Below, piece by piece: positions 18,735 through 39,690 of a DNA stretch of 64,000 nt. The position numbers and the translations under genes are program-made. Under the pieces are notes generated by a model. It made no database searches. It saw only the letters and a program-made list of their open reading frames with translations, and was not told the origin of the DNA. This stretch comes from an uncultured Elusimicrobia bacterium. GTDB lineage: Bacteria > Elusimicrobiota > Elusimicrobia > 2-01-FULL-59-12. The DNA is taken from NCBI GenBank assembly GCA_963702895.1, contig OY969767.1, positions 2,496,001 to 2,560,000 of the forward strand. Direction: 5' to 3'. Position 1 is the first letter of the stretch. Every line of letters starts with the position of its first letter.

Positions 18735-18741
18735 GGTGTTC

Positions 18742-19137: not shown

Positions 19138-20318
19138 GCCGGGCGCTCTGTCCCTTCGTTGAGGATTTTTAGATAGGGCTCATAGGCAAAGACGCGGTAG
19201 GTCTGCTTGCCGGTCAGTTCGCGCACGAGCCCAAGTTTCTCCAAATTGGCCATCGCTTTGTTGATGGCCGGATAGGACATCTTAAGCTCGCGCTGCGCCA
19301 CGACAGGCGCCACCAGGACCCGGCGCTGGAGTAGAGTATGGACGCGCTCGGCGGACAAACCGACCCGGCCTAAGGTTCGAATCTTGGTTTGATGCTCCTG
19401 AAACATCGCTGCGAGTCTTCGAGCGGTCTCGCTCGCTTGGTTTCCCACTTCTTCGATGCCCTTCAAGTAAAAAGCCAGCCATGCTTCCCAGCCGCCCTCG
19501 GTGCGAATTCCTTGCAGTGCGTCGTAGTATTCGGTCCGATGCGCCTTGAAGTAGAGACTCAGATAGAGCAACGGCGTGGATATGACGCCATCGGCCAGGA
19601 GGATCAAGGTGATCAACAAACGCCCCAAGCGCCCATTGCCGTCCAGGAATGGATGGATCGTCTCGAACTGCGGATGGGCCAGACCGGCCTTGATCACAGG
19701 TGAGGTCCTCACCGGATCGTCATGCAGAAATTTCTCCAGAGCAGACATCGCTGGGATCACTTCATGGGGAGGCGGCGGGACATAGCGGGCGTTGCCGGGC
19801 CGTGAGCCGCCAATCCAATTTTGAGAGCGGCGAAATTCGCCGGGTTCTTTATCGCTCCCTCGACCGCCCTTGAGCAGCACGTTGTGCATCTCGCGGAGAA
19901 GCCTCAAACTTAATGGGAACCCTTCCTGGATTCGCCGGATGCCGTACAGAAGAGCCGCCACGTAATTGGAGACTTCCTGAACGTCATTCACGGGCACGCC
20001 AGGGGCCGCTTCGTTTTCGAACAGCAGCAGCTCGGAGAGCGAAGATTGCGTCCCTTCTATCTGCGAAGAGAGGACCGCTTCTTTGCGGATATAGGAATAG
20101 AGGAAAAGATTGGGGTCAGGCAGGAGCGCCGTGACTCCGTCCAAGCGGCCAAGCGCCCGATTGGCCCGTTCGAGAAGATCCTGAAGCTCAGCGTCAAAAA
20201 TAATCGGGGGATGGGGCGGCAGGGGTGCGGGGATGAATACGCGATAGGATTCCTCCGGCATTGAAACCAGCTGCCAGTGGCCCGCCCGAAGATTTTCCGT
20301 CTTCTCTAATTCACTCAT
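19134..20318 (-). CDS. Fic-family protein with C-terminal HTH
   Basis: EAVLSSQIEGT; canonical HPFLDGNGRLGR. Confidence 0.92.
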   Translation of the reverse strand: MSELEKTENLRAGHWQLVSMPEESYRVFIPAPLPPHPPIIFDAELQDLLERANRALGRLDGVTALLPDPNLFLYSYIRKEAVLSSQIEGTQSSLSELLLFENEAAPGVPVNDVQEVSNYVAALLYGIRRIQEGFPLSLRLLREMHNVLLKGGRGSDKEPGEFRRSQNWIGGSRPGNARYVPPPPHEVIPAMSALEKFLHDDPVRTSPVIKAGLAHPQFETIHPFLDGNGRLGRLLITLILLADGVISTPLLYLSLYFKAHRTEYYDALQGIRTEGGWEAWLAFYLKGIEEVGNQASETARRLAAMFQEHQTKIRTLGRVGLSAERVHTLLQRRVLVAPVVAQRELKMSYPAINKAMANLEKLGLVRELTGKQTYRVFAYEPYLKILNEGTERPA

Positions 20319-20573: not shown

Positions 20574-20768
20574 TGGAGGGAGAGGTCCGCCGCACTCCCG
20601 GCGGATCCGCCGGACGTCTGGCGGAGATTCGTCCGCCACTGAGTCGCTGGCGGACCCGCCTACGTCTTAGTGGCGGGGAACCTTCGGTACGCCCTCCACT
20701 CACCTGGCGGGCGTCCGCCTGTAGTGTGGCGGACGGTTTCCCGCACAATGCTTTTCAAGAGCATCGCC
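20574..20768 (-). pseudogene. tRNA-Ser(UGA) 3' part carrying six inserted hairpins (partner of the 5' half at 38556-38594)
   Basis: Removing the hairpins gives GGCGATGCTCTTGAAAAGCATTGTGCGGGAAACCGTACCGAAGGTTCGAATCCCTCTCCCTCCA; 16 bp shared with 38556-38571. Confidence 0.85.
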
Positions 20769-20789
20769 TCGTGGCGCTTGTGTAGGTCG

Positions 20790-20852
20790 TGAGCGGAGGG
20801 AGAGGGATTCGAACCCCCGGTACAGTTTCCTGTACACCTGTTTTCAAGACAG
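20790..20852 (-). pseudogene. tRNA-Ser(UGA) 3' half, integrase-proximal att junction
   Basis: CTGTCTTGAAAACAGGTGTACAGGAAACTGTACCGGGGGTTCGAATCCCTCTCCCTCCG; 13-bp core shared with 37294-37306. Confidence 0.9.
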
Positions 20853-20957
20853 CTCACCCTCTGTTTCGACGGTTGCTTGATTCAGTTTGATTTATGGAAG
20901 AGAAACGCTGATTGGATTCGTCCCATTTCCATCTCCATTTACAGCCCGATTTACAAC

Positions 20958-22013
20958 TTATGCGATTACGGGTGGCTTTGGCAAGGTCAAAACCCCTTCG
21001 ATGTTGTGAATTTCATCGGTCAGGTCCTTCCTATCCAAGTGCCCGTAATGTTGCTCCGTGACGACCGAAGTGGAATGCCCCAATATCTTTGAAACCTTAT
21101 ATATCGGGGTACCCCCGCTCAGCATCCGTTGCGCGAATGTGTGACGCAGACAATGGAAAGTGAAATCCATCACTTGCGCATCCTTACAACAGTCCTTAAA
21201 CCATTCGCTAACTGTAGTGCAGTGAACGGCATCCAGCAAACGCGTCTCTGGATCTCGGCCAATGGCACGCTGAGACACGACTTCCGCCACTTCTCGCGTG
21301 AGTGGCACATGACGACTGCGCTGAGTCTTCGAATTCGGAACGAAGATGTAGGGCTCCGGGTAAGGGATGAAATCTCTGACCCTTGTCGCCCATATTTCCC
21401 CGATCCGCATTCCGGTATGAATCGCGATGACGTAGTAAGGCCAGAGCCGTGTATGCTTTGCCACGATCGGCGTTAGCCTTTTTTCCTCATCAGGTGATAG
21501 ATACCGGACTCGCGCTTTCGGAACTTTGGCCATCGGGACACCCCAAGCGGGATTGTCTCCGAAATACATCCGGCGTTTCTTGACCCAATTGATAATCGCC
21601 TTTAATCCGGCGTGATACCGGTTCACGCTGTTCAGCGAAATGTGGGGGCTCGAAATGCCGGGGATTGTCTTTTCGACAAACCTACGGAAACCCTCCACAT
21701 CTTTTGGGCCTATGTCTCGTATGCGCCGATTGCCGAAGTAACGCTTTATCCCCTTGATGTATGCCCTATCTCCCTTCCAAGTCCTCTTAAAGGGCCGGGC
21801 GTATTCATCAAAGAACTCGTCACAGGCATCACTCAACTTCAAGTTATCGTTGCCCAATTGGCCTGTCGCCATGCGCTTGAGCATTTCTGACTTCTTGTGT
21901 GTCTCCGCTTTTGCGGCATTACCGCGCGTCTTGTAGCCTTGCTTCCATTTCGTCTGTTTGCCGACTTGGAAGCGGTAACACCATTCTCCGCTTGGCAGTT
22001 GTCTGACCGACAT
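20958..22013 (-). CDS. Tyrosine integrase
   Basis: TGMRIGE, HCLRH, LGH and HY catalytic set; N-terminal arm-binding-like segment. Confidence 0.95.
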   Translation of the reverse strand: MSVRQLPSGEWCYRFQVGKQTKWKQGYKTRGNAAKAETHKKSEMLKRMATGQLGNDNLKLSDACDEFFDEYARPFKRTWKGDRAYIKGIKRYFGNRRIRDIGPKDVEGFRRFVEKTIPGISSPHISLNSVNRYHAGLKAIINWVKKRRMYFGDNPAWGVPMAKVPKARVRYLSPDEEKRLTPIVAKHTRLWPYYVIAIHTGMRIGEIWATRVRDFIPYPEPYIFVPNSKTQRSRHVPLTREVAEVVSQRAIGRDPETRLLDAVHCTTVSEWFKDCCKDAQVMDFTFHCLRHTFAQRMLSGGTPIYKVSKILGHSTSVVTEQHYGHLDRKDLTDEIHNIEGVLTLPKPPVIA

Positions 22014-22051
22014 TTAAGCCTCCTGTCGGCCAAACCTACCGCACGGGTACA

Positions 22052-22261
22052 TTATAGATCCCATTTGAGATTGTGTGGGTTGTTGGCCGCGAGCCATTTC
22101 TCAATATCAATTCGACGAAAAATGACCCTTCTACCGACATGAATGAACGGAATTCGCGCATTACTGGTCATTTTTCGGATCGTTGACTTCTTAATCCGAA
22201 GCAATTCAGCCAACTCCGTAACGTTCAAGAAATCTCGCGGACTCTCAATCGGTGTCGTCAT
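22052..22261 (-). CDS. Excisionase-like HTH protein
   Basis: FLNVTELAELLRIKKSTI...IPFIHVGRRVIFRRIDIEKWL. Confidence 0.88.
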   Translation of the reverse strand: MTTPIESPRDFLNVTELAELLRIKKSTIRKMTSNARIPFIHVGRRVIFRRIDIEKWLAANNPHNLKWDL

Positions 22262-22297
22262 AAGATTATTTTTCAAAAACAAACCCAATCGAAGCCC

Positions 22298-22963
22298 TTA
22301 TTCATCGCTTGGCTCCGAGCCGTGTGTCTCATCCGCAGAATCAGGAGACCGAGCATACTCCGGCCCTTTTCTTCTGGCCTGTAACCGTTCCAGTTCATGG
22401 ATGCACCTGAGGAGCTTCCGTTCGATGCTCGTTTCATACTGGGATAGCAGTTGAAGGCTCTCCTGCACTGTCTGGAATGAAAGACCGGGCACAACATCTG
22501 CTCCCCCAGTCATTCGGCTGAGGCGGTCGATCTGTTTCTGAGCACGCGCCTTTCCCTCTGGGTCAAGAATCTGCTCGAATGGCTCACATAATTTATCCTC
22601 CATGGGGTTCACTATTGCGACATATCGCTTCGCTTTTTCCCGTGCCTCTACCAGCCATTGCGTCAAAAGGCCTCTCATCAAAAGTCCATGTTCCGCATTT
22701 TCTGACCGTCGGAGCCTCCACATCAAACTCGCGACTCTATCAGTCATGAATTGTTCCATGGAACCCTCCGGCTTGTATAAATGATGGACCCCTTCGCTCA
22801 GTTGTTCACATTCTTGGGGATCTTCGTTCGGCAGGACTGCACGTTCCGATGTAAGGCCGTGCTTCAAGGCATTCCTCGCGATAATTGCTTTGCCCGCCAG
22901 ACTTTTTACACCTCCTGCTTTCGCATTGATCCGATTGGCTTGATTTTGCTTTTCAGTGGCCAT
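22298..22963 (-). CDS. Hypothetical mobile-element protein
   Basis: MATEKQNQANRINA...ARNALKHGL...WRLRR pattern; GGGGG RBS. Confidence 0.7.
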   Translation of the reverse strand: MATEKQNQANRINAKAGGVKSLAGKAIIARNALKHGLTSERAVLPNEDPQECEQLSEGVHHLYKPEGSMEQFMTDRVASLMWRLRRSENAEHGLLMRGLLTQWLVEAREKAKRYVAIVNPMEDKLCEPFEQILDPEGKARAQKQIDRLSRMTGGADVVPGLSFQTVQESLQLLSQYETSIERKLLRCIHELERLQARRKGPEYARSPDSADETHGSEPSDE

Positions 22964-25445
22964 ACTGACCCCCCCTTTGGACTTCAAATAGTGAAGGCTG
23001 TGAACTTGGTGAACCATTTTCGACGTGCTCAGGATTAGGGATGTCCGTTTCTCGGGGTCCATTAAGTACAACATCGGGCTGGCCGAGGTTCACAGGGTTC
23101 ACAGGTTCACTGAGTGAAATGAGTTTCCACTGCTTTGCCCGTTGCTTTGATCCGGCCAGTAGCACACGGAATTCATCGAATTGCCGGTCACGGAGTTTCA
23201 TGAGTTCTTGACCCATCTTGGTTCGACGGCTTTTCTCCTGACCCAGTCCAAGGTTTATGGGTTCTTCCAACTTCTCGTTCAGATCAAAGAGTTCCGCCAC
23301 CCCTACCTCAGCGTCGCCATGGACTTCCCACCACCTCTGTATAAATCCCCGTAAGATGTTGCCTTCCTCATCAGATGCGCCGTAGAAGTCGTTGAGATTG
23401 CCAAGGAATCCGGGCACACCGGCAACCGATAGGACTCCACCCATGGTCTTTGACCAAGATTCGAACATTCCCAGACTTACACCCTTGAAAGGAGGCCTTC
23501 CTTGAGCGATCCACCCCTGAATGATGGTCAGAGCGGCCCAGATAATCTGCGGACGCTTTTCTCTTGCCCAGCACATAAGGTCTGGATGTCGAAATCTGTC
23601 GCGCAACCATGGGCGGTCAGCTTTGGCATCCATTCTTATTCTGATCGAGCGGCGGGACATTTCGTTGGATAAAGCTGGATTATTTCCATTGGCAACCCAA
23701 GCGCATCTCACTGGCAAGGAGATGACTTTTGAGAACCCTAGAATCCGATCCTCCCAACAAGGCGAAGTGATGGCTGACGCGAGTGCGGACGAGTCCAGCC
23801 GTCTTCTGATGTTGTCGATGAGCAGGATGTCGGGTCTTTCCATGAGTTTTGACGTGAGTCTTTTTCGCCATTCGTCAGAATCCCTCCCCTCACTCATAGT
23901 CGATACGGGCCGACCCAGAGAAGCAAACGCCACAGCGTTGATCAGAAGCGTTTTCCCAGTTCCGGGCGATGGGGCTTCTACGAGGTGAAGCGGTGTCGCT
24001 CCATTAATCAGATCCCTCGCAAATGGAAGCAACAAAAGCGCAAACGCATGGGCACGCTCCGCCTCTCCTGTAAACGGGAACTCCCCGATCAGTTCATCTA
24101 GGATCAGGCCGCGAGCTCCTTGCAGTTCGTCATGGCTCGGTACTGCGGCGACCTCAGGAATCTCTCTGGGATCAGAATGAAAAAGGTATGTCTGGCTTGC
24201 TGGGTGGTAGCCAGATGATGTTTGCAATAGCCCTTCCGGAGAAAATACCGGAGCTTCCACGATGCGGGTCAATATTGGCAGGGGTAATTCGGGAGATGCC
24301 AGCATGTCTTTGACAACATGCATCGGAGGTAGCACGGGATAGACTTCTCCTTGGTAAACGCGATACCAATCCGCAGAGCGAGCCAAAACATGCCGCATCT
24401 TGTCCTGAACCAATTCCCTCAAACGCGGGTATCCCTTATCGTCTTTTTCGATTCGAACCGGCAGACCTCCTGAGCGGAACAGTGTGGGGGGCCGATTGAA
24501 TTGCTCAACCGCTTCCCATGCCAAAGGCGTAATTCTCTTGAGTTCAAAGTCTCCTGCATCGATGTGCGGAAGTGAATCAGCGCTCTTGCCGATCTCATGA
24601 GAGACTATAGGCAACATTAAGGCCTCTGCTGAATCTCGCGCCGCAGAAAAGCGGCTTGAGAACTCATTGGGATATTTAAGATGCAGGTCGCTGAGGTCCT
24701 TGGCATCACTCAGCTTGATTAGTTTGAGGATTCCATGCCATTCAAGGTTCTGCACACGGGAGGAAATCCCATCGGCAAATACCTCGCCGCCTCTATCGGG
24801 CTCTTGGATCACACAGAGTTCCTCGAACGCCCGGATATGTTCAGCGTTAAGCTTTTTGGCCATATCGGCACCCGGAAGTCCCAGCACGGGCAATTGATGA
24901 AACCAACCCGTTAAGACATCGGTCTCGCCTTCTACGAGCACCAGATACTTCTCAGATGCAAATTCTTGCAACCTCCACAGCCCGTATGGAACCGATGACC
25001 CTGACCCACTCGACCACCTACTCCCTTCCTTGGCAACTAAGGAAGTCCGAATCCTCTGGCGGGAGGCTTTACTGCCGTCCATCAATCGATAGGTTATTCT
25101 TGCGCCCTTGAATGGAATATCCTCCACGCCGTGTTGTCTAAGAAACTGCGAAGGCAGGTGCTTGTGCTGGGCAATCGCCTCTACAGTTACCAGCACCCGG
25201 TGCTTCGGTTCTGTGGTAGGGACTTGGGCAAAGAGCGTTTCTAACGGAAGTCTTAACGCTTTGCGAATGTTCTCAAAGGGGCACCCCGCAAAGCATTTGA
25301 AAAGGATTTTCCCATCGTTCCCAATCCCGACTGATAGGCTCTGTTGTCGGTCCTCGTGCGACGGACAAAGTGCAGTCCACTGGGATTCTCCGTTCTTTTT
25401 GACACCTTTGAGGCGAGACAACACAAGTTCGACACTCATTGCCAT
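22953..25445 (-). CDS. Primase-helicase-like replication protein (Zn finger, TOPRIM, P-loop ATPase)
   Basis: CPSHED...CFAGC; LVEGETD, EPD; SPGTGKT, LLIDN. Confidence 0.85.
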   Translation of the reverse strand: MAMSVELVLSRLKGVKKNGESQWTALCPSHEDRQQSLSVGIGNDGKILFKCFAGCPFENIRKALRLPLETLFAQVPTTEPKHRVLVTVEAIAQHKHLPSQFLRQHGVEDIPFKGARITYRLMDGSKASRQRIRTSLVAKEGSRWSSGSGSSVPYGLWRLQEFASEKYLVLVEGETDVLTGWFHQLPVLGLPGADMAKKLNAEHIRAFEELCVIQEPDRGGEVFADGISSRVQNLEWHGILKLIKLSDAKDLSDLHLKYPNEFSSRFSAARDSAEALMLPIVSHEIGKSADSLPHIDAGDFELKRITPLAWEAVEQFNRPPTLFRSGGLPVRIEKDDKGYPRLRELVQDKMRHVLARSADWYRVYQGEVYPVLPPMHVVKDMLASPELPLPILTRIVEAPVFSPEGLLQTSSGYHPASQTYLFHSDPREIPEVAAVPSHDELQGARGLILDELIGEFPFTGEAERAHAFALLLLPFARDLINGATPLHLVEAPSPGTGKTLLINAVAFASLGRPVSTMSEGRDSDEWRKRLTSKLMERPDILLIDNIRRRLDSSALASAITSPCWEDRILGFSKVISLPVRCAWVANGNNPALSNEMSRRSIRIRMDAKADRPWLRDRFRHPDLMCWAREKRPQIIWAALTIIQGWIAQGRPPFKGVSLGMFESWSKTMGGVLSVAGVPGFLGNLNDFYGASDEEGNILRGFIQRWWEVHGDAEVGVAELFDLNEKLEEPINLGLGQEKSRRTKMGQELMKLRDRQFDEFRVLLAGSKQRAKQWKLISLSEPVNPVNLGQPDVVLNGPRETDIPNPEHVENGSPSSQPSLFEVQRGGQYGH

Positions 25446-25466
25446 ACCTCTTGAAGGTAATGTCGA

Positions 25467-25733
25467 TTATTTCGATGCCAAGGGGCTATTTCCATATCCA
25501 TCGCTCCTATGAATGAGATCTTTGATTCGTCTTTGTGAGTCAGAGAAATCGCGAATGTTGCCCACAAGGTCGCCGCGCAGGAAGGCCTCAATCAGACTTG
25601 CGGCTTGGTCAGATGACTTAAATTGGAAATGACATACGCCGCGATCCCGCAGAACGGTAATCAGCGGAATGCGAAACGCGAGAAGAAGCGCGGCTTCGTT
25701 AAAATCTTTCGTGGAGAAGGGTTGCATGTTCAT
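25467..25733 (-). CDS. Small hypothetical protein (DUF5659-like)
   Basis: 'TKDFNEAALL' pattern; directly upstream of the primase. Confidence 0.55.
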   Translation of the reverse strand: MNMQPFSTKDFNEAALLLAFRIPLITVLRDRGVCHFQFKSSDQAASLIEAFLRGDLVGNIRDFSDSQRRIKDLIHRSDGYGNSPLASK

Positions 25734-25823
25734 TCCATGTGATGCTTTGCATGGAATTATTATGCGGAATGCAAATTACCCGAAAGGGCGTATACGCCCT
25801 TTATGCGATGGAAATTAGGTAAT

Positions 25824-26324
25824 TTATTTCTGGGATAGGATCTTGCGAATAGTGTTTCCGCTAAGGCAAGGGAATGACTCACCACTCTCGGCTGAAAGAT
25901 TCAGATTATGATCTTCGAGTCGATCCGTCAGGATGCGAGCGGCTTCACGTCTTGTTATTTTCGAGTTGTGTGTTTTCATCTCATCGAATTGGTTCCAGAG
26001 CCATTGATGTAGTGCTTTGGATCTTTGTCTTCTGCGAGGCTTCTGAGTTGCAGATCTGTATTTGGATTTGACTTGTCCGTGCACCTTCCTTAGCTGTCGA
26101 GTCGTTCTATCAAGCTTGCTATAGGGGAAGAACCGCTCCCCTTGTTTCTCCTTCGCTTCATAGGATCTCCACACCGATGCGACGTGCTTTTGCACTTCAC
26201 GCAAACTCCAAATCAAAGGAATCTTTAGAACAATTCGTTTCTGCTTCCCGGATGCTTCCTCATGTACAGAGAATGAAGTTGGGGGAAGTGGTCGATACGA
26301 TTCCTTTGATTTATCCATTTCCAT
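25824..26324 (-). CDS. Hypothetical basic protein
   Basis: ORF on the island strand; C-terminal helix 'SGNTIRKIL'; start uncertain. Confidence 0.45.
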   Translation of the reverse strand: MEMDKSKESYRPLPPTSFSVHEEASGKQKRIVLKIPLIWSLREVQKHVASVWRSYEAKEKQGERFFPYSKLDRTTRQLRKVHGQVKSKYRSATQKPRRRQRSKALHQWLWNQFDEMKTHNSKITRREAARILTDRLEDHNLNLSAESGESFPCLSGNTIRKILSQK

Positions 26325-26355
26325 GTCAATACTTGCTAGACGAGCTAAGCCGGTG

Positions 26356-29166
26356 TCACTCCTCCTCAAATTCGGCGATATTGAATCGCAAGGTGTTGGC
26401 ATTTTCCTGAACGATTCGGCGGGTGGAGTCCGAGACTCCGCCGGGTGACTCGGCCTCGATCTCCATCGTAATCTTGACCTTGGTTCCGTACTGGCTGGTG
26501 AAATGCTGAACGACCTCATCAGCGATCCGAGCGGCCTCGATCCCCATCTTGACCGGATCGAGGGGCACGGAACCGTGGAACCGCTTCATTGGCTTGGATT
26601 GAGGAGCTGATGTGCCCGGCAATCCCCCGGCGATTGGAGTCTTTCCACTTGGTGTGACCTCTGGTGTGGAAGGGGCTGTACCGTCCTTGACCATCCCGGC
26701 CTGCCGAGCGAGGGCTTCTCTCTCAATCTGGGCTTTGGCGGCGACCGGGTTGATGAGAATGCTGACCTCATCCTTGTAAACCGTGCCCTGTTTTCCGAAC
26801 AGGAGTCCCAAGTACCGTCCATCCTCTTTCCCGGTTGCGAAGGCGAAAAAGTCCTGACTGCCTATCCCGGCAGAAATCGTTTCAAAGAGCACATGGGTAT
26901 CCACAAGGCGAGGTAAGTATGGATAACAGCAAACCGCTTTCCACACTTCCTTGACGGTAACCTCCGGGCGGTCATCCTTCCAGAACCACTCCCGGAGCAT
27001 ATCGCGCAGATGAATTGGTGACCACCGGGGATAGATGAACTCATTTTCGACGCAGAGCTTCTCTATCGCTTCCATCGGATTGGACCCGGCGGATTGAAGG
27101 CTCTTTTCCCCCCAGAACACATCCTTGGCTCCACCCTTCGAATTGGCTTCCTGCGCCGGAACCAGAACCCATCTGTACACTTCCTTCACGGCGGCGCTGA
27201 CCCTGCCGTCAGCCTCATCCCGGTTGTCCTTCGATTCCTTGATCTGGTGCTGATCCAGATTCAGAAGCGCCGTGTCATTGACGATGCTGTCCCACGCCAT
27301 AAACCTTTTGACCTGATCCCAAAGGTGGGTGCTCGCATCCTCGTCCGCCGCCAAAAAGACGAGCCTGTTCTGGTTCTGGCGTGGCTGTTGACCTCTCTGC
27401 GTGTTGATCGTGGAAGCGGCATCCACGGCCCTCGATTTCGGAGTCTTGCCACGGTGCGGCGCGGCTGGCGACAAAACGACAAGCCGTACGGATTCGTCGT
27501 CCGGGATGTCCTCATGTCCCGTGAAAACATGGACTCCCGAAAAGGGACCGCCCCGGACAAGATTCCGCACACGATTCTGTATCTCCGGGATCAGATGCTC
27601 GTCCCGTTGGAACCGGGACAGCCTGTCCTCCATCTCACGCCTCAAATTCGGACGAGTGTCGTACCAATACCTGTCGTTCCCGGTGTAGAGATGATGAAGC
27701 TGGTCCTCCAAATGCTTCAAGGCATCGTCATATCGTCCGATCTGTTGTCCGGGCTGGGCACATCCCAGCCGCACGCGCTGGGCATTCACGCCCCGCACTC
27801 TCTGGGCCGCGACCGACGGAGCGCTTCCCAAGAAGATCGTCCGGGCGACGCGCCGCGCCGCCTGCACGCTCCCTCCAAGGGGGTTTTTCTTGTCCATTTC
27901 GGTGGGTACAGCTTCATCGCCATCAATATCGTTCTCAATGACTGCGTCCCAACCCTGTGGGAGATACCGATTCAGTTCATTGTCCACCTGCGGATCATAA
28001 AGCGGAAACGAGCCGGGCATAACGAGCAGGTCTGTGTTCCCATCAGCCCAAAGCCGATGAATGACCATCGCCATGAGCCGGAGTACGCCTCGCGTGCGCT
28101 GAAAGTGTTCAAGGCTGGCCCAATCCTTGTATAAGCGCTCAAAGACTTCCGGGTGGATCGGGTAGGAATCCGTCAGTTGGGTCAGGTAGGCGGCTTCAAC
28201 GGTTTCAGATGGAAATTGCCCCTTGTTCTCGACGTATAGATCAGCAAAAGCGCGGGAGACGGCATCCCTCGTCTTTGTGTCTTTGATCTTTCCAAAAAGC
28301 CGTCGCCGGACGATCTCAAACCCTTCATGCGTTGCCACGGGCTTCCAAATGGCTTCCTTGCGGCCAAAAATCTTCTGGATTTGCGCGAGCGCGACCTTCC
28401 CTCTCTCGCCACCGACTTCCATATCCGATTCTGGTAGCGATGCCAAGAGCACCATGTTGGTCTGCTCCGCCGACTCCGTCAAAGCCTGAAAAAATGACAG
28501 GTTCGAGTCAAAAGTCCCGCCAGAATACTGTTTGCCATCCTCAAACTGGCGGAGGTATGCCACGGTTTCGTCAATGAGAACGACGCATGGAGAGTATTTC
28601 GTGAACAGCTCGACCAATACTTTCTTGCCCGGCGATGTCCCGTCACGGTCAGATGCTTCGACCAACTTGTAACCCTGATCGCCACCCAGTTGCCATCCCA
28701 GCTCCCCCCAAAGTGTTTTAACTTCAACGCCATCGCGCTTTCTTGTGTGAGACGGACTGAGAGCGTTTCCGTCAATGATGGCAACCCGCGCACGGGGAGA
28801 TTCTTTTATGCCAGCTTGGTCCAAAATCTTTGGGATTCCGGCCAGCTCCTTGGCCGGGCGTTTGGATGTCACCAAGTGATAGACAGCGAGCATGGCGTGA
28901 GTTTTTCCGCCGCCGAACGCGGTTTGGAGCCGGATCACCGGATCACCACCCTTGCCTGCCAGCCTGCGTAGAACGCTATCGAGAAGCAGGTGCATTCCCT
29001 CGGTAATGAACGTCCGATCAAAAAAGGTTGCTGGGTCTTGGTATTCCGGGGAGGCTTTTCCTTCGGCGACCTTACTGAGGTCTGCGGCGAACTCAGACTC
29101 CTGAAAAGTCCCTTCAAGCACATCGCTGTTAGGTGGTATCACGTCTCGCCACGGTTTAAGGCTCAT
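26356..29166 (-). CDS. DUF499 AAA+ ATPase
   Basis: [32 protein letters not shown] and [12 protein letters not shown]. Confidence 0.92.
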
Positions 29167-29182
29167 AAGTTTGCTCCCGCTC

Positions 29183-32026: not shown

Positions 32027-35000
32027 TCGCGTGTCGCCATCTTCAATAGTGCCTTGATCTCGTAATTCATGCTTTCTACTCCGAAAGGGGCTTCATCCTT
32101 GAACGCGCCGCGAACGTAGAATGGGCCTTCCGTTCGTTCTCCGTCCACCAGAACGATGGCGAGCGCAAATCGGTCCGGCTGGTTGAACCCGGTCAGAATC
32201 TCGTTCTTCGTGACCGTTACGGTTTGCGCGTCCTTGGCGCGGCCTTTAACCTCAACAAACTTCAAGTCACCGCTTTTCAATTTGGAAGTGATGTCCCAGC
32301 CGCATTTCTGTTTGGAAACGTCTTGAGGAGTGTTGTTCAGCGATAGTTCATGGCGCATGACCGCTTCCATCGCCATCCGTTCGATCTTCTCGCGGACGGC
32401 AGGGTCCTGCGTCATCAGATCACCAGACCCCATTTTCTGGCGCAAGAGGCCCGCCGGAATGACCAGAGCGCCGCCCACCACACGCGGAGTGGCAGATATG
32501 ACGTGGCGACGGGCTTCCAAGTCGGTTTGCCGTTCTTTGAGCCTCTGGTCCAGCTCCTCAGCCCGTTTGCGGGCATTGTCTGGTTGAAGGCGGGGTTGCT
32601 TGCCCAAAGAAACCTGTTCCTGCAACTGGGCGGCACGCTTCTGCCAGTATGTGATTTCCTTGACCAAGCGCTCCTGAACGGCCTGCAAGGTCGCATCAAT
32701 TAGCCGCTCTTGCCTCGATTGGACCTCACGGAGGTGCTCTGGCACTATGGTTTGCGCGGCATGGGCAATAATCAATGGCTCAAGGTCTTTGTGTAGCCAT
32801 TGCTCTTGCAAAATGTCCTTGATGTGCTCACGTTCCTCATCCTTGAGCGGTCGATAATCCAGATAGGGGGCATAGCCACCTTGCGCCACTTGCCCCTTCC
32901 GATCCACCTGCACAAACTGCAATCGCTCAGAAATCGGTCTTTGCTTCCCGTGTCGGTCCACCGCCCCATCACGAATCTGGTGTTCAAGGATAAACATGAC
33001 TCTCGGCTCCACTCCATCGTCGGCGCTGTCCACCAGAACGGTTCCGCGTTTAAGCAGGTCGCGGTACTTCTCGACAACGAGATCGAGTACTGAATCCATT
33101 AAGGGATGACCGGGGCATATTAAAACGGCTGGGGGCTTGCCGTTTTGTCGTATCTTGCTTTTCTCAAAACAGATACGTTCGTACTTTGGCGTAACCGGAT
33201 GCCCGCGTCCGATGACTTTGTCTCTATTGCGGATTACTGATGGGACGTGGGTGATCTCATAGCGACCTGATTCGCGTTGATGGATCTGCCCACCAAAGCA
33301 GGAAAATCCTTCGAGGAAGAATGCGCGGATAAAGTGTGGTTGGAGTTTCCGGGCTTCGGCCTTTTCCATATCGTCTTTGAGTGCGAAGACTTTGCTCGAA
33401 TCCATGTGCTCGGTTGCCAATGCGACGCGATCCATAATATCGCGCAACCGTTCCCGGTCAAGTGCCCCTTCGACCTTCTGATGCAGTCTGGCCTTGGCTT
33501 CCGGTGTTTCTCCTTCCCGGATGGCCTCGATAAGCAACTCGCGTAATGCAACTCCGCTAAAGACTTCACCCAGAATGTCGAATACACGGCCACCAAGCGC
33601 CTGCCGCTCGATATCGAGCTTCTGCAATAGCCTCTCGAACACATCGCCTTCGCGTGTTTCCTTCGCCACCATGTTCCAGCAATGACAGATTTCTTCCTGC
33701 CCGATGCGATGGATGCGGCCAAAACGCTGTTCGAGACGGTTGGCGTTCCACGGAAGGTCATAATTTATCAGCAGGTTGGCCCGTTGAAGATTGATACCTT
33801 CACCTGCCGCATCGGTGGCGACAAGGATCAAAACGTCTTTCTGGTTTGTGAACATCTCTTGGGTTTTGCGCCTCTCATCCCGATTCATGCCGCCATGAAT
33901 CGTCACAACCGCATCGTCGTTACCCATCAAGCCTTTGATCTTGTCCACCAGATAGCGCAGAGTATCTCGATGCTCGGTAAAAACGATCAGCTTGCGGCGG
34001 TTGCCGAACGAATCCTTCATCTCCGGGGTGTCTTGGAGCAGGCGGGAGAGTTCTTCCCATTTTTTATCCTCTCCCGATACTCGGACTTGATGTGCCTGCT
34101 TTTCCAGCCTCTTTAGGCTCTCGATCTCTCCTCCCAGCTCCGTGATGGTCTGAGCCGCTGTCGCCTGATCGACGACCTTTTCTTCGAGCGCCTCGACCTC
34201 AGAGTCCGGCGCGTCATCCAGAAAGTCGGCTATATCTTCTTCGGAGAAAGCCGGAAGATCAGGCTTTGCTACTGGGACGGTCTGCCCGCGTTTGCTGGAT
34301 AGCTCCTCTAACCGACCCTCCAAATTCTTGCGACGACGTTCGAGAGAGCGGAAGATCGCCTCCGGGGAAGATGCCAGTCGCCGTTGAAGCGTAGTCAATG
34401 CAAACCCGACCGTACCTCGACGATTGGTATCGAGTTTGTCGGCGCGGTCCATTTCGCCACGGACGTAGCTGGTCACCGCCTCATAAAGAGCCGATTCCTG
34501 TGCTGAGAGCTTGTAATTGGCCGTGTAGGCTTTGCGTTCCGGGAAAAGGGGTGTTCCTTCGAATGTGAGTAGCTCCTCCTTAATCATGCGACGCATCAGG
34601 TTAGTCACATCAGGTTGAACGTCTTTCTCTCTCGGTTTCCCGTAGAAACGATCTGGGTCCAAGAGAGCCATGAACAGATGGAAGTCCTCCGGCTTGCCGT
34701 TGTGCGGTGTGGCTGTCATCAGCAAGAGATGGCGTGTGATCCGGTCAAGCAATTTGCCGAGGTTGTACCGCTTCGTCGCCTTGATCTCGTTGCCGTAATA
34801 GGTCGCGGACATCTTGTGTGCTTCATCAACCACGATCAGGTCCCAGTCACTGTGGCTGAGACGAGCTTCTAATTCTTCGTCGCGGCTTAGTTGATCCAGA
34901 CGGCAGATTAGAAGGCTGTAACGCGGATCAGCGAAGATTTCTCCGGCGTGGCTGGAATTGTCCAGTTCCCGGCCAAAGATGTCGAAGACAAGGCCGAACT

Positions 35001-35517
35001 TCTCCTCAAGCTCATCCTGCCATTGTTCGACAAGCATCCCCGGCGCGATGATGAGACATCGCTTCACGTCTCCCCGGAGCATCAATTCCCGGATGAACAG
35101 CCCAGCCATGATGGTTTTGCCCGCGCCGGGGTCATCGGCTAAAAGGAATCGCAGGGGTTGTTTGGGAAGCATGGCATCATAGACAGCGGTAATCTGATGC
35201 GGCAAAGCCCGTACGTTGCTGGTATGAATCGCCATCAGTGGGTCAAACAGGTGGGCAAGCTGAATCCGTTGGGCTTCGGCGACAAGCCGGAAAGTCTGAC
35301 CATCCCCGTCAAAGGTCCACGGTCGACCTCCCATGGCGACAGAAAGCTTGTCCTCGTCCTGTCGGAACAGCATCCTCTCGCCCGTTCCACCAGCATCGTC
35401 ACGGTAGAACACACTGACCGCGTCGGTCCCGACCGGATTGACAGCAACGACCTTAGCCGCTTGATGCGGCAGAATCCCCCAGACAAGGGTTTCAGGTTTC
35501 AGTTCTTCGAGTTTCAT
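32023..35517 (-). CDS. SNF2-family helicase with C-terminal DUF3883 nuclease-like domain
   Basis: [32 protein letters not shown]-terminal GWDI...VEVKG. Confidence 0.93.
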
Positions 35518-35519
35518 TC

Positions 35520-35612
35520 AAAAAAAGACGAGGTCCCGGAAACCATTGGGTGGCAAAACCGGGACCTCAAAAACATAGAAATGGCGTTATCCTGCCAGCG
35601 TCCCAATGGTTT
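35520..35612 (-). promoter_or_regulatory. Structured leader (terminator/antiterminator-like) of the helicase operon
   Basis: 10-bp stem gaggtcccgg/ccgggacctc with a T-run just before the ATG; its loop is complementary to 35593-35612. Confidence 0.5.
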
Positions 35613-35661
35613 TTTCATTCACGCTCCCGCTCAGTTCAGCATGTGTAGAGCACACCTGTTT

Positions 35662-36270
35662 TCACAATTGAGTTTCTTTTCTAGCTGAATGTAACAATCC
35701 CAGATGACTCAAGGCTGTTTCAACTGCTTCCGTGGCTTCTGATGCAGAGCAACAGAAGACTTCTCCAAATGGAGCTTGCTTATCGTGACGCTCCGCTAAG
35801 ATTTTATGCGTTAGGTATTCAACCTTCTCGACACCTTCCGTATAAAAAGCGGCCATAAATTGCCACTCTCCCACTGGTCGAGGGTAGTGACGATACCTTT
35901 CTATTCGCTTTTCAAGAGTATTCACTATCCGAACGGCTGAATTTCTTTCACTACCGGAAAGTTGGCCGAGACGACTAATAATATTCTCTCGATAGGACTC
36001 AGCAAGCGCCACATCTTTTTCAAGGGGTAACGCGTTGCCCCCCGAACAACCTCTGCCACTTTTAACATGTTGAGGAACAAGCCCCATGATGTTAAGTAAA
36101 CGACCGCCACAAACCTGACAAGTGACCTTTCGCTCTAGCCACATATCATTGAAAGTTCGAAGCCGATCCGCTACATCATTAACTCCAATAGCAGTCATTC
36201 CGATTTTCACGCGCTGAACTGCGGAGTTTTCAAAAATATATACAGCACCGTGGTAGAGAAAATCGCGCAT
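35662..36270 (-). CDS. GIY-YIG/T5orf172-like nuclease with a Cys/His insert
   Basis: GAVYIF...VKIGMT...RL; CQVC...H...C; E..H..L, GEVF. Confidence 0.7.
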   Translation of the reverse strand: MRDFLYHGAVYIFENSAVQRVKIGMTAIGVNDVADRLRTFNDMWLERKVTCQVCGGRLLNIMGLVPQHVKSGRGCSGGNALPLEKDVALAESYRENIISRLGQLSGSERNSAVRIVNTLEKRIERYRHYPRPVGEWQFMAAFYTEGVEKVEYLTHKILAERHDKQAPFGEVFCCSASEATEAVETALSHLGLLHSARKETQL

Positions 36271-36322
36271 TTAACGTTAAGCTATCCCGAGTGACAACAT
36301 AGCGATTCCGCCAACAAAAGAA

Positions 36323-36412
36323 TGGCGGAGGGTGAGGGATTCGAACCCCCGATAAGCTTTCGCCTATAACGCTTTTCAAGAGCGTCGCCTTCAACCGCTC
36401 GGCCAACCCTCC
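36323..36412 (-). tRNA. tRNA-Ser(UGA), intact, 90 nt with encoded CCA
   Basis: GGAGGGTTGGCCGAGCGGTTGAAGGCGACGCTCTTGAAAAGCGTTATAGGCGAAAGCTTATCGGGGGTTCGAATCCCTCACCCTCCGCCA folds as a full class II cloverleaf. Confidence 0.96.
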
Positions 36413-36425
36413 AAATCTATTCGAC

Positions 36426-37178
36426 TCAGGTCGCATGGGCGACATTTCGCCATGCCCCATCTTTCAACTGCACATAATGCATAACGATCTGTTCAGTTGC
36501 GTTTTGAATGTCTATGGTCAGATCAAAAATATCCTTCCATAAATCATCAATTTTCATTTCGGTTAAATCTCCGAGGACCTGCTGTGCCGCGCCATCCGCA
36601 AAATGGTATCTGGTCGAACCAGCCGTGGCTCCCCTTGATATATAGGGCGTTCTCTTCTCCTCTGGTTCAACTAAATCAAAACGATTCCTAAAGCCTCTCA
36701 ATAACTCGGCGGGGTCGTAATGGAAAGTGACTTTATTTCGAATTCGTAACAGGACCTTATATGTCCTGCTGTTGGCCTTCCCACCAACAGCGAACGCGAC
36801 AAATTCTTTCCACTTGGCTCGCGCTCGCTTATTCATTTTGTCTACTATCTTTTTCATGAGCGGATGTTTCAGCGCATTTTCGTTGTCGACAATGTAGTCA
36901 ACGACGCTAAAGATCAGGCTAATATATTGACGCTGTAGGTGATAAATCAGGCCCCCATATTCACCCCATTCGGGAGTCGCCGCCCACTCGCCCTTAGGTG
37001 TCTGCTTTTTCAAAGTCTCCCATGCCGCCGCAACATCAGCTAAGTCATTATGGGCCAGAGCAAAACTAAGCACCAAACCAGCGACCCCGCTCTCATCTGG
37101 ATCAATCTTCGTAAAGACCTGAGCACTAAAACTCTCCAAGTCGGCCAGCTTGAATTCTCTGATTTCACCGATGCTCAC
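36426..37178 (-). CDS. Hypothetical protein, possible HEPN-like RNase
   Basis: Helical protein with RNKVTFH (RN-x4-H). Confidence 0.55.
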   Translation of the reverse strand: MSIGEIREFKLADLESFSAQVFTKIDPDESGVAGLVLSFALAHNDLADVAAAWETLKKQTPKGEWAATPEWGEYGGLIYHLQRQYISLIFSVVDYIVDNENALKHPLMKKIVDKMNKRARAKWKEFVAFAVGGKANSRTYKVLLRIRNKVTFHYDPAELLRGFRNRFDLVEPEEKRTPYISRGATAGSTRYHFADGAAQQVLGDLTEMKIDDLWKDIFDLTIDIQNATEQIVMHYVQLKDGAWRNVAHAT

Positions 37179-37293
37179 ATTTACAACTCCCTACGGCCTC
37201 ATTTACAACCTGCCCATAAAAACAGGGCTATCTCTGTCATCCATCGTATCACTCGCTCCGTCGAACAGGTGCGGTAGGTTGGCCGGTTTATTG

Positions 37294-37334
37294 GTTTTCA
37301 AGACAGGCTCCTTAAGCCGCTCGGACATCCCTCC
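37294..37334 (-). pseudogene. tRNA-Ser(UGA) 5' half, distal att junction
   Basis: GGAGGGATGTCCGAGCGGCTTAAGGAGCCTGTCTTGAAAAC, then non-tRNA sequence; acceptor and anticodon stems pair with 20790-20852. Confidence 0.9.
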
Positions 37335-37360
37335 GCTGCCAATCCTTCCCTTGCGCAACG

Positions 37361-37378
37361 CCACTCTCCCAACCCTCC
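37361..37378 (-). pseudogene. Short tRNA-Ser 5' relic
   Basis: GGAGGGTTGGGAGAGTGG. Confidence 0.55.
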
Positions 37379-37471
37379 GCTGATCGCTTTCCTCATTTTG
37401 TCACTACGTCCAACCTTCCTTGACTCTAACAGGTTGGGACAATCCTCCCGCTCTATCATGGCGGGAGGACG

Positions 37472-37724
37472 CCTTCGGTACCCTTACGGGCACAGCTGTT
37501 TTCCCCTCCACTACATTGTTGGAGGGCCCGCCTAAGCCGGAGTGGCGGGAAGACATCCGGATCCCTCCTGCCCATTCCTTAAGGAGGAGGACCGCGCGCC
37601 AGTTACGCATCGGCGCGAGGTAAACCTCCGCCACATCCGACACACGTCAGTCGGATCCGCCCGAAGTGTGGCGGACGACAGGCGGAGAGCGCCTGTCGTG
37701 TGGCGCTCACTCTCCCAAGCCTCC
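37472..37724 (-). pseudogene. tRNA-Ser(UGA) pseudogene with eight hairpin insertions
   Basis: GGAGGCTTGGGAGAGTG|GTTTA|ATCCGGATGTCTT|GAAAACAGCTGTGCCCGTAAGGGTACCGAAGG after removing 37626-37707, 37563-37620 and 37504-37549. Confidence 0.85.
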
Positions 37725-37739
37725 GAAACGTGGATAAGA

Positions 37740-38093
37740 TCATTTATCTGCTTTCGGTGGGGGCACGGTATGCTCAAGGCATTGGATAAGGGATGGAAGA
37801 TCCTTCATGACTGTGTCCCAAACAATCTCAAGATCAATATCATCATAGTCATGAATCAAAACGCTGCGAATACCGATCATCTGCTGCCAGGGAATATCCG
37901 CCAGAGCCGCCCGCGTCTCGGGCGAAATGCGACGAGACGCTTCCCCAATAACTTCCAGCCGCCGTATAACAGCATCCTGGCATTGCGAATCGGACAGAAA
38001 GGTTTCGTAAGAATGATGGACCAGATACTGGCGGGCTCCTCGAGCCGCGTTCAGGATATCGAGCAGATACCCCGCATCACGCGGCGGCAGCAT
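37740..38093 (-). CDS. HepT-like (DUF86) ribonuclease toxin
   Basis: AVIRRLEVIGEA, IPW, RSVLIHDY. Confidence 0.9.
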   Translation of the reverse strand: MLPPRDAGYLLDILNAARGARQYLVHHSYETFLSDSQCQDAVIRRLEVIGEASRRISPETRAALADIPWQQMIGIRSVLIHDYDDIDLEIVWDTVMKDLPSLIQCLEHTVPPPKADK

Positions 38094-38394
38094 AGAGAGA
38101 CTGCGCTGTGGAGAGGATTTCAGTCCGTCGCAAATAATTGGCGCTTCGCTCCAGCCCTCGACGGCTAACCAAATCGACAGGACGCTGGAACAACCTGCTC
38201 AATTCCTCTTGCATCTGGACGAAATCGAAGAGTGTAGGGTGCGACTGTGGCTTGAATGTCACTAACAAATCGATATCGCTCGTATCGGAAAAATCCGGAC
38301 GCAAAGCAGACCCAAAAAGAAATAGTTCCTCGATTCCCTTTTGACGGCAAAACTGAGCAAGACGCTCACGATCAATGTTTATCTTCGGGCTCAT
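38077..38394 (-). CDS. MNT nucleotidyltransferase antitoxin
   Basis: LFGSALRPDFSDTSDIDLLV, RPVDLV. Confidence 0.9.
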   Translation of the reverse strand: MSPKINIDRERLAQFCRQKGIEELFLFGSALRPDFSDTSDIDLLVTFKPQSHPTLFDFVQMQEELSRLFQRPVDLVSRRGLERSANYLRRTEILSTAQSLYAAAA

Positions 38395-38555
38395 AGCTTC
38401 TAGATTATATGTCCTGTACCCACAGCTTTCCACAAAAGGTTTAGACCTTCATACGCCCGACTTTACAACAACAGGACACAAAAGTGTAAAACTCGGTACA
38501 ACTCCGTACAAGTCCTTTGAATGAAAAACTGCGCGACGTTTGGCCGTAGGGTAAC

Positions 38556-38594
38556 TTTCAAGAGCATCGCCCTATACCACTCGGCCATCCCTCC
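38556..38594 (-). pseudogene. tRNA-Ser(UGA) 5' half, att junction
   Basis: GGAGGGATGGCCGAGTGGTATAGGGCGATGCTCTTGAAA, then non-tRNA sequence. Confidence 0.88.
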
Positions 38595-39249: not shown

Positions 39250-39690
39250 TTGACAACTTCATTGACGGCCACACCATCTATTTCAGGCTATGCCCGCCAA
39301 CCTCTGTCTCACTCACCCTGTCGTCCCGGTCCCCCATTTAATTTAACCGGCCGGGACGTACCGACTAAGATTCGCTCGCCGGAGGCTCGCTTCACGGTCG
39401 AACGGTACGAACAGGTGCGGCCGCCTTATCGGCCCTCCGAAGCCTTGGCGAAGGAGGGTAGGTCGCCAGACTTCCGGCGACTTCCGCCACAAGACGGGCG
39501 GACTCGACGGCTGTGTGTCGAGCACCGGACGGCTTGGCGAGTTGGCTGGTTTATTGGTTTTCCCACCTTCGCAACAACGCGCTGCCGCGCCGCTACGGTG
39601 GGCAAGCAAGACATCCAGATCCCTCCTTCCCATTCTTTAAGGAGGAGGGCCGCGCGCCAGTTACGCATCGGCGCGAGGTAAACCTCCGCG
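39250..39690 (-). repeat. Degenerate att junction: tRNA-Ser D-loop/anticodon relic fused to a homolog of the 37180-37300 arm, with several hairpin insertions
   Basis: 39608-39689 nearly matches 37550-37631; gttggctggtttattggttttc matches 37278-37299; cgaacaggtgcgg is also shared. Confidence 0.8.

Follow-up and report, generated by a model that had tools for sequence, protein, structure and literature searches.

Mobile elements that occupy or replace tRNA genes have been described in several forms, three of which are close to the locus reported here. In the tRNA-dependent lysogeny of actinobacteriophages (Fionnbharth K4, Cluster L; Guerrero-Bustamante and Hatfull 2024, PMC10865867), the consulted parts of the report describe an integrase site overlapping a tRNA gene, a short core (about 10 bp) and a tRNA that is rebuilt at neither junction, and its authors raise the speculation that the tRNA gene of a first plasmid may act as attB for a second. 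Islander islands (PMC4383910, in the portion consulted) have in common with our locus the tyrosine integrase, the crossover in the anticodon loop, the occurrence of several elements per tRNA locus and, in its relatives, a 5'-fragment type; they differ in that here the target is not regenerated, the intact gene lies inside the island and tRNA halves are found on both sides. In Sinorhizobium meliloti (PMC11476347), the phage-related substitution of tRNAs is likewise one in which an element-borne tRNA replaces the host gene; the word 'nested' does not occur in the consulted text of that report, where we saw no multilayer case, whereas here the layers are nested.

The innermost layer of the present locus, layer B, has the layout of the tRNA-dependent integration known from actinophages. 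Compared with the consulted account of the phage case (PMC10865867), the elements are 9-16 kb non-phage defence islands of Elusimicrobiota whose dependence on the tRNA is deduced from sequence; moreover, nesting is seen in a natural chromosome, and restoring and non-restoring members occur within one integrase family. A literature search confined for the most part to freely available papers gave no description of natural multilayer nesting.

Order of the tRNA-Ser(UGA) pieces

The window, that is, the whole stretch of 64,000 nt that was analysed, belongs to a genome assembled as one contig (2.72-Mb, 98% complete). On the minus strand the pieces are in the order 5'A, 5'B, intact tRNA-Ser(UGA) C, 3'B, 3'A and 3'D. 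The original prediction had placed all the tRNA pieces that it named correctly, and, as it claimed, pair A (38556-38594/20574-20768) encloses the inner pair B (37294/20852); its geometry stands, but it omitted the key piece, the intact tRNA C, which is inside both pairs. The 16-bp repeat attributed to 5'A and 3'A is exact (20753-20768 = 38556-38571) and has two occurrences in the 2.72-Mb genome, while the inner repeat is of 13 bp (20840-20852 = 37294-37306). Repeats of 16 bp averaged 0.7 in 20 Markov simulations of the window, so that by itself this one is weak evidence, and it is the tRNA context that carries the weight.

Further tRNA relics are present at about 37361-37378 and at 37472-37724, 39408-39620, 40350-40393 and 42341-42353, coordinates which were read off rulers with a possible error of one or two bases. 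Three integrase-type left junctions (F, A and B) are stacked, each followed by the next tRNA after about 1 kb (0.9-1.2 kb). A low-depth read joint 20816-38556, with 80% likeness, was set aside as probably deriving from the tRNA of another organism.

It is highly improbable that the order of the pieces is an assembly artefact produced by the tRNA repeats. The genome is a single contig, no repeat shared by the A, B and C pieces exceeds 16 bp, the inner layout recurs in three other genomes and six pieces of sequencing run X1 (151-211 nt) match int, hmaB, hmaA and fic without difference, even if no contig or read of this single run (share 0.10) bridges a junction.

Structure of island B

Layer B is a 16.4-kb island that splits its target without restoration. 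Its ends, and the tRNA that it carries, are the following:

37335-37360, minus strand: 26-base left arm of tRNA B (sequence reading, arm pairing)
37294-37334, minus strand: 5'B, 5' half of the split tRNA B, island attL (repeat, ARAGORN join, nhmmer)
37179-37293, minus strand: P' arm of island B, with a leader-complementary stretch and arm-type repeats
36323-36412, minus strand: tRNA C, the genome's only intact tRNA-Ser(UGA), inside island B (tRNA calling, Rfam)
20853-20957, minus strand: P arm of island B, with arm-type repeats
20794-20852, minus strand: 3'B, 3' half of the split tRNA B, attR, insert-free (Rfam, repeat, ARAGORN join)
20769-20794, minus strand: 26-base right arm between 3'B and 3'A

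No tRNA is called at either island-B junction, the core being the 13-bp repeat. tRNA C is the sole Ser(tga) among the 48 tRNA calls, and a rough count in long ORFs gives 4562 TCA codons out of 808,328; from the single copy and the use of the UCA codon, we infer that tRNA C is needed for the survival of integrants. No sigma-70 match was found directly upstream of it. Precise excision with re-formation of the tRNA would now be open to layer B alone. Presumably, a rule going from fragment to intact gene would put the left end of this island at C rather than at its true position, 5'B, and such elements would be misplaced by any island-finding rule for which one end must be an intact gene. The P and P' arms of island B share an 11-bp inverted repeat that the other islands did not show.

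The genes of the island are as follows:

36426-37178, minus strand: 250-aa ORF that matches no family
26356-35517, minus strand: hmaA-hmaB-hmaC defence genes, cargo (PADLOC HmaA, HmaB, HmaC, 1312-1792 bits)
22953-25445, minus strand: primase-polymerase-like protein (PHROGs 19930, 6088)
22052-22261, minus strand: excisionase-like HTH protein, 69 aa (PF12728, TIGR01764)
20958-22013, minus strand: tyrosine integrase, 351 aa, adjoining 3'B (PF00589)

The integrase is the only one of its family in the genome, and its residues R203, K229, H287, R290, H313 and Y323 are invariant in 42 relatives. Virion genes or families were not found among the island-B proteins scanned (int, HTH, primase and Hma cargo), three ORFs matching no family, and for their absence from these proteins the temperate phage was rejected as an identity of layer B.

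In silico rejoining of the tRNA halves

Joins were scored with ARAGORN and stem counts, which stood in for covariance scores. On the whole genome ARAGORN gave 48 tRNA calls, 47 of which score 115-129, the remaining one (101.2) being a duplicated Glu 5' part. Excision of layer B in silico joins 5'B and 3'B into a Ser(tga) tRNA with a score of 118.1 and complete stems (acceptor 7/7, anticodon 5/5). Excision of layer A gives a join of 5'A and 3'A that is not called as it is, but scores 120.6 once the six 20-24-nt hairpins are removed; its acceptor (7/7) and anticodon (5/5) stems are complementary, in agreement with the original prediction. Acceptor pairing does not discriminate, since it is 7/7 in the crossed joins too; in these (5'A+3'B and 5'B+3'A) the anticodon stem is lost and ARAGORN assigns no isotype. 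As for the intact gene, 5'A with 3'C pairs acceptably (117.9), and the hybrids 5'C+3'B and 5'B+3'C have broken anticodon stems. The outer 3'D fits 5'B (anticodon 5/5, ARAGORN 117.8) as well as 3'B does, and it does not fit 5'A. An Rfam scan matched tRNA C and, as a weak tRNA-Sec-like match, 3'B, and nothing else.

The insert-free and fully paired 5'B and 3'B are what one would expect also of a working split tRNA gene whose halves are joined by trans-splicing, as in some archaea. We regard this as scarcely credible: archaeal trans-spliced halves do not overlap and have no intact counterpart, whereas here the halves overlap by 13-16 bases, integrase arms flank them, an intact gene is present and 3'A is shredded. 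To our knowledge, Bacteria are without the archaeal splicing endonuclease.

Layer A and the outer pieces

The following features belong to layer A:

38556-38594, minus strand: 5'A, 5' half of an older tRNA-Ser(UGA), reaching as far as the anticodon loop; forms the left junction of layer A (nhmmer E 1.8e-7)
38461-38555, minus strand: P'-type arm after 5'A, with the family motif 11 bases past the loop, then short direct repeats resembling the arm type
37740-38433, minus strand: MNT-HepT toxin-antitoxin-like pair inside layer A (Pfam PF01909, PF01934)
37472-37724, minus strand: relic E, a whole hairpin-shredded tRNA-Ser, like the chromosomal gene of congener G003 (by eye)
37361-37378, minus strand: stub H, tRNA-Ser 5' end that breaks off in the D-loop, immediately ahead of tRNA B's left arm (sequence reading)
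20574-20768, minus strand: 3'A, tRNA-Ser from the end of the D-arm to the 3' end, with six 20-24 nt hairpin inserts

The nhmmer match of relic E is weak (37503-37472, E 0.39). The left end of layer A is an integrase-type junction, made of a 5' half and a P' arm whose motif spacing equals that in two relatives (G008 and G007). At the right junction, its own integrase and P arm are absent, and just 26 bases separate 3'B from 3'A; as 3'A has neither integrase nor arm and starts in the D-loop, it is more likely to be part of a small arm-flanked tRNA insert than an attR. It keeps nine target-stem bases, against a few at most in the P arms of complete split-and-replace islands. The H, B and 3'A junctions lack four bases of the D-loop, and H mismatches 3'A in the D stem. 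The age gradient that had been read from hairpins in the outer relics holds for the 3' pieces, but not for 5'A, which is free of hairpins, nor for the heavily shredded relic that lies inside layer A.

Small arm-flanked tRNA inserts are common in this genome. Of 47 tRNA genes, 10 are flanked on either side, at no more than 75 nt, by exact stubs of their own sequence; the break points vary and the D-loop is among them, and none of the ten has an integrase of the island-B family. By energy alone most arm pairs genome-wide fail to beat the 5% null, and their register beside the acceptor stem was judged by eye. For a hairpin transposase, the genome search gave just a weak partial Y1 match. At this locus, compact nests of arm-flanked tRNAs occur next to large integrase layers.

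Outside layer A there are five more features:

42341-42364, minus strand: second, shorter copy of the arm and 5' stub at 40350-40393
40350-40393, minus strand: arm and tRNA-Ser 5' stub; the right arm after 3'B finds its best complement in this arm
39408-39620, minus strand: F, hairpin-interrupted anticodon arm, then a P' arm of island-B type; third left junction
17511-20318, minus strand: Fic gene and two ORFs without clear family
17394-17510, minus strand: 3'D, 3' half with one 63-nt T-loop insert, whose anticodon strand fits 5'B

The third 3' half announced at 17394-17510 is real, but no outer 5' partner of it was demonstrated, and the 5' half it fits is that of B. It abuts the stop codon of the upstream ORF, with no arm. 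A second MNT-HepT pair separates the 5' end of F from its anticodon arm. The right arm after 3'B has a pairing energy of -31.1 kcal/mol with the arm at 40368-40393, outside 5'A, versus -18.4 kcal/mol with B's left arm, the latter being at about the 5% level of random sequence; this best pairing outside 5'A argues that the pieces were shuffled and leaves strict nesting unproven.

We considered as somewhat unlikely a strict Russian doll, the reading of the original prediction, namely three split-and-replace integrase islands (F/D around A around B), each placed in the tRNA that its predecessor had brought, the outer two of which lost cargo, integrase and right arm by deletion. Three P' arms are indeed stacked on the left, with the next tRNA 0.9-1.2 kb on as in complete islands; the right-hand order B, A mirrors the left-hand A, B; in congener G002 a type-A gene arrives whole behind a P' arm; and the 5' stub of F is in the arm family of B, and so F could have had a B-type stem fitting 3'D. 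Against this, integrase and arm are absent before both 3'A and 3'D; a deletion would have had to stop precisely where B's arm ends and at a D-loop position used by inserts in other relics; the nine stem bases of 3'A exceed what complete islands hold; and the present anticodon strand of F pairs with 3'D at just 3/5 positions, by eye.

Comparison with related genomes

The integrase family has 12 loci in 393 genomes. In 4 of the 12 (this genome, G008, G487 and G036) both ends were seen and the layout is 5' half, P', own whole tRNA, cargo, int, P and 3' half. Once the G487 island was removed in silico, the sequence aligned across the junction, at 91% over 231 nt, to the intact gene that congener G028 carries, an empty allele which, at the level of sequence, identifies the split gene, and not the internal one, as that of the host. 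Two other family loci, with both ends seen, restore the target via a 5' half, and two more have a whole tRNA after int; the restoring layout of Islander type was found at the two loci of G252.

These restoring members, together with G032 and G011, in which a 5' half and a P' arm are followed by the matching whole gene, would favour ordinary restoring islands lying unnested on either side of a host tRNA C, with 5' fragments upstream and 3' fragments downstream, the usual pattern in the consulted part of Islander (3760 islands with a 3' fragment, 159 with a 5' fragment; PMC4383910). We consider this very improbable. The broken anticodon stems of the C/B hybrids mean that neither could be an earlier host gene, the P' arm matching this integrase is at 5'B, outside C, and the empty G028 allele marks the split gene as the host's. 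For layer B these results contradict ordinary restoration, which may nonetheless apply to some of the stubs on the left.

At least two Ser 3' halves were found in 6 of 308 genomes: this one, G008 and G487, which are splits, G311 and G296, with two whole genes each, and G372, whose second match is not tRNA-like by eye. No second genome with two nested split pairs occurs among the 308, with a search pattern that misses hairpin-shredded halves. The original prediction had pointed to related genomes for intermediate states; none was found there. Congener G002 has a whole hairpin-shredded type-A gene behind a P' arm and an ORF, its likeness to the rejoined A being judged by eye. A scan of collections for the integrase gave one close locus (L169) among the matches listed, which were dominated by generic integrases; it is apparently the same element as G252 C1, and a scan of viral contigs for the P' motif gave no match. 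On a quick integrase tree the two layouts need 3 changes, no fewer than shuffles (306/500), so that the tree speaks neither for nor against a single origin of the non-restoring type.

Proposed order of events

The layout is that of a 16.4-kb island carrying the sole intact tRNA-Ser(UGA), bounded by older halves, within still older halves, and it is likely the outcome of several cycles of breakage and replacement of an essential gene, through two different kinds of insertion. An element of the same family would have recombined in the anticodon loop of tRNA A, leaving 5'A and its P' arm, and A was probably restored at the right end of the element through a carried 5' half, a route that four members of the family take or seem to take. 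Small arm-flanked tRNA B would then have entered the D-loop of the restored A, as at other tRNA genes here; A would have turned spare and gained hairpins, and the integrase end of the element would have been deleted between two similar tRNA 5' stubs. Finally, island B would have recombined in the anticodon loop of B with no restoration, and we propose that it survived because it carries tRNA C. Each replacement tRNA would become the next target. Of the claim of at least three successive insertions, each into the tRNA of the previous layer, what remains likely is several rounds of breakage and replacement; three clean integrase shells were not demonstrated. An integrase together with a matched right arm is present in layer B alone.

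We also put forward, tentatively and as a less certain idea, a self-renewing target: islands split tRNA-Ser(UGA) and bring their own, so that the next element finds a fresh target, in at least three successive layers within a single natural chromosome, and the essential gene is repeatedly swapped for a foreign one, with an RNA switch spanning attP by which integrase is produced mainly from the excised circle. If true, this would be a natural case in which the tRNA brought by one element is the attachment site of the following one, a possibility on which the tRNA-dependent lysogeny paper only speculated, and would extend the strategy to non-phage defence islands. An island with the sole copy of an essential tRNA would be lost by precise excision only, and, with outer layers decaying and the inner tRNA permanent, core tRNA genes would come to be replaced by foreign ones. 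The presence of restoring and non-restoring members in one family makes that paper's open question on evolutionary order testable.

Predicted RNA switch on integrase translation

The start of int has the following feature:

21990-22056, minus strand: -10-like box and leader of int, with a predicted hairpin over the first codons

The P' arm at 5'B is complementary to the int leader of the same island, 1 of 1000 shuffles being equally strong, and the P'-type arm after 5'A has a predicted pairing with the int leader of -29.7 kcal/mol; 5'B plus P' has no notable fold alone (z 0.31). On these predictions, the leader hairpin would block the first codons and the P' segment would open it. With the activating half of the switch across attP, we propose that integrase would be made mainly from the excised circle. 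No description of such an int leader switch was found in the literature searched, for the most part freely available papers.

In the sib retroregulation of phage lambda, int expression depends on a sequence spanning attP that integration separates from int. The dependence of integrase expression on sequence across attP, parted from int upon integration, would be alike in the two cases, and the sign would be opposite, the effect predicted here being the opening of a hairpin that blocks translation.

Order and rejoining of the tRNA pieces

The tRNA-Ser(UGA) of the congener G003 sits in the tal/pgl-yaeQ interval and, since the tRNA pieces of the window lie in the same interval, we considered the locus as the ancestral tRNA-Ser(UGA) locus, much expanded, in a genome of 2.72 Mb (one contig, completeness 98%). 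All the tRNA pieces are on the minus strand; those of the older split copies A, B and D and of the intact copy C are, in reading order:

38594-38556, minus strand, 5' half of A (5'A)
37334-37294, minus strand, 5' half of B (5'B)
36412-36323, minus strand, intact tRNA-Ser(UGA) (C)
20852-20794, minus strand, 3' half of B (3'B)
20768-20574, minus strand, 3' half of A (3'A)
17510-17394, minus strand, 3' half of D (3'D)

The order 5'A, 5'B, C, 3'B, 3'A confirms the original prediction that an outer pair of halves brackets an inner one, and we considered the feature as real and its layout as nested. Of the three successive layers proposed, the inner one is firm, while the outer ones have decayed and had some of their pieces shuffled; it is likely that a single essential tRNA was the site of three or more insertion events. 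The 16-bp repeat of the outer halves, located as predicted, and the 13-bp repeat of the B halves are both exact. The A 16-mer occurs twice genome-wide; as a mean of 0.7 repeats of this type is expected per simulated window, it is on its own little proof.

Precisely, ARAGORN was used to score 18 joins, in which each of three 5' halves was combined with each of six versions of the 3' side. The raw join 5'B+3'B was called Ser(tga) with a score of 118.1, whereas 5'A+3'A was uncalled until six hairpins of 20-24 nt were cut (120.6); intact C scored 123.4. The anticodon stem was lost in 5'A+3'B, in 5'B+3'A and in both B/C hybrids. The A/C hybrids were also called (5'A+3'C, 117.9; 5'C+3'A, 114.4), because the A and C sequences are close. 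The third 3' half is present beyond 3'A as predicted, but it pairs fully with 5'B once a 63-nt insert is removed (117.8), and not with 5'A or 5'C.

The inner island

The B halves enclose 16.4 kb, which we considered as a complete island. In reading order it consists of the P' arm (the integrase arm sequence beside the 5' half), a 250-aa ORF, tRNA C, a T5orf172-domain gene, hmaABC, an ORF, a primase-polymerase-like gene, an ORF, an excisionase-like HTH gene, a tyrosine integrase and the P arm (beside the 3' half). The integrase has the full catalytic set, and a close relative of it is recorded from an Elusimicrobiota bacterium; no virion families were found among the island proteins scanned. 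C is the sole Ser(tga) among the 48 tRNA calls of the genome, the other serine tRNAs reading UCG, UCY and AGY under standard decoding, and TCA codons are used (4562 of 808,328 in long ORFs), so that on these sequence grounds C is very probably essential.

The outer layer

The family P' motif lies 11 bases past the anticodon loop of 5'A and is followed by short direct repeats, with the spacing of the relatives G008 and G007; 5'A is thus a left junction of the integrase family of island B. In the congener G002 a P' arm and an ORF precede what is by eye a whole type-A gene, shredded by hairpins, so that A was formerly a real gene. The gap between 3'B and 3'A is of 26 bases, with no arm or integrase in it, and 3'A starts at the end of the D-loop, the position of inserts in G008 relics; the right side of layer A (the interval between the A halves) is therefore not an ordinary attR. 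The gap sequence resembles the complement of the 26 bases preceding 5'B, which come after a stub that breaks off in the D-loop.

An incomplete copy of itself lies within 600 bases of 32 of the 48 tRNA calls (on both sides in 9), a few being neighbouring tRNAs of similar sequence, and exact stubs within 75 bases on both sides flank 10 of 47 tRNAs, at least one probably by chance. The two-sided stubs are broken within the D-loop, the anticodon loop, the variable region or the T arm, or else past the D arm. The genome has 223 hairpins of the 3'A type, where one simulation gave 33, and 64 of the 223 have a tRNA or tmRNA gene no more than 1 kb away. No integrase of the island's family was found at the arm-flanked tRNA genes of this genome. 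Many of its tRNAs (e.g. at 813419, 817351, 909430, 1666702 and 2042520 of G000:C1) are intact, with short complementary arms, inside broken older self-copies.

Layer A might be an island that split its target and carried its own whole tRNA (split-and-replace), its right part then deleted, but we hold this rather unlikely. Given the arm-flanked tRNAs and hairpins of the genome, we read B instead as an arm-flanked tRNA that would have inserted into a restored copy of A and would subsequently have been split by island B, which is the probable course.

Departures from a clean nest

An arm at 40368-40393, outside 5'A, is the better partner of the right arm (the 26 bases after 3'B): pairing with it reaches -31.1 kcal/mol, compared with only -18.4 kcal/mol for the left arm of B itself (null 0.1%, -25.0; 5%, -17.2). 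The D stem of stub H is mismatched against 3'A, and F (39620-39408) is a third left junction, with a P' of B's type, whose anticodon strand pairs at 3 of 5 positions with 3'D. The greater age assigned to outer pieces from their hairpin load holds for the 3' pieces but not elsewhere, since relic E, inside layer A, is more decayed than 5'A.

In G008 C7 (L016:6150-9140, L017:4770-4980) four left junctions are stacked before an intact tRNA, against one clean 3' half; the split gene is also present as a whole copy with an interruption in its D-loop, and after it come restriction-modification-like genes, Fic and an integrase remnant. Among the 308 genomes searched, none besides this one showed two nested split pairs, and no read of one run spanned the layer junctions.

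Two MNT-HepT pairs (37740-38433; 39661-40318) are each followed by an 82-base hairpin-bearing tRNA-relic piece (37550-37631; 39608-39689; 95% identical); upstream of them are VapBC and other small modules, with tRNA stubs between.

Relatives of the integrase

A 42-integrase alignment was searched against 393 genomes of the class (E 1e-60 or better), giving 12 loci in 10 genomes, of which 9 were classed by layout and 3, more distant, left out. Both ends of a split-and-replace layout were seen in the window locus, G008 (14.7 kb), G487 (13.8 kb) and G036 (8.9 kb, tRNA-Thr); G480 has a 3' half after int and no other end seen. Two loci, both of G252, are restoring with both ends seen, the element carrying the 5' half of the target; in G406 and G411 int is followed by a whole tRNA, and the left end lies beyond the contig. 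The two layouts did not cluster in a quick integrase tree. After in silico excision of its island, G487 matches the intact gene and flanks of its congener G028 at 91% over 231 nt across the junction (flanks, 88% and 79%); this is a filled/empty pair for the split-and-replace layout, at another locus than the window's.

Among family members, G001 (L077:900-1200) and G009 (L078:1189-1410) have compact nests, with tRNA-Ser(UGA) within stubs of an older copy. The Ser gene of G007 (L073:5178-5266) comes after a P' arm and an ORF and has, by eye, an odd anticodon loop despite its ARAGORN call of tga.

Predicted integrase leader switch

In 6 of 8 family members the integrase leader (21990-22056 in the window) is predicted to form a hairpin that covers the first codons; no more than 6 of 300 shuffles were as stable. 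P' (37266-37293) is complementary to the 5' strand of the hairpin, as in 4 of the 6 two-ended elements (0-4 of 1000 shuffles), G487 and G036 lacking this complementarity. The pair of G252 C12 is unlike the others and self-matched (-34.8 versus -17 to -23 with other leaders). Co-folding of leader and P' is predicted to open the hairpin. An int transcript made from the excised circle and running through attP would extend into P' and might turn on its own translation, and integration separates the leader from P'; an attP-linked translation switch is thus possible on these folding models, and the same complementarity might conceivably be a DNA binding site.

Comparison with known systems

Of five features of tRNA-dependent lysogeny considered here (PMC10865867), layer B shares three, but it is not a phage and dependence on C is presumed. 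The authors of that paper speculate that a plasmid's own tRNA could serve as an integration target, and the relation of restoring to non-restoring systems is an open question there. In the other sources, the Islander principle presupposes restoration (PMC4383910), tRNA substitution by phage-related sequences is reported (PMC11476347) and tRNA fragments are taken as restoring scars (PMC9897764). No natural multilayer case was found in the literature searched.

Flanks of the locus

Two identical, inverted IS4-family copies (1272 bp), at 1-542 and 63656-64000 and both extending past the window, enclose the entire 63-kb region, and one adjoins tRNA-Ser(GCU). Compared with G003, yaeQ is oriented differently with respect to tal/pgl, which may reflect an inversion. 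A 400-aa ORF contains a 253-bp internal repeat (11666-12224), and an 8-bp tandem repeat lies at 6127-6214. A 95-bp repeat (47753-47847 and 55925-56019), the end of a cytochrome c552 (nrfA-like) gene, encloses an 8-kb block of glycosylation genes with lower G+C, possibly an insertion.
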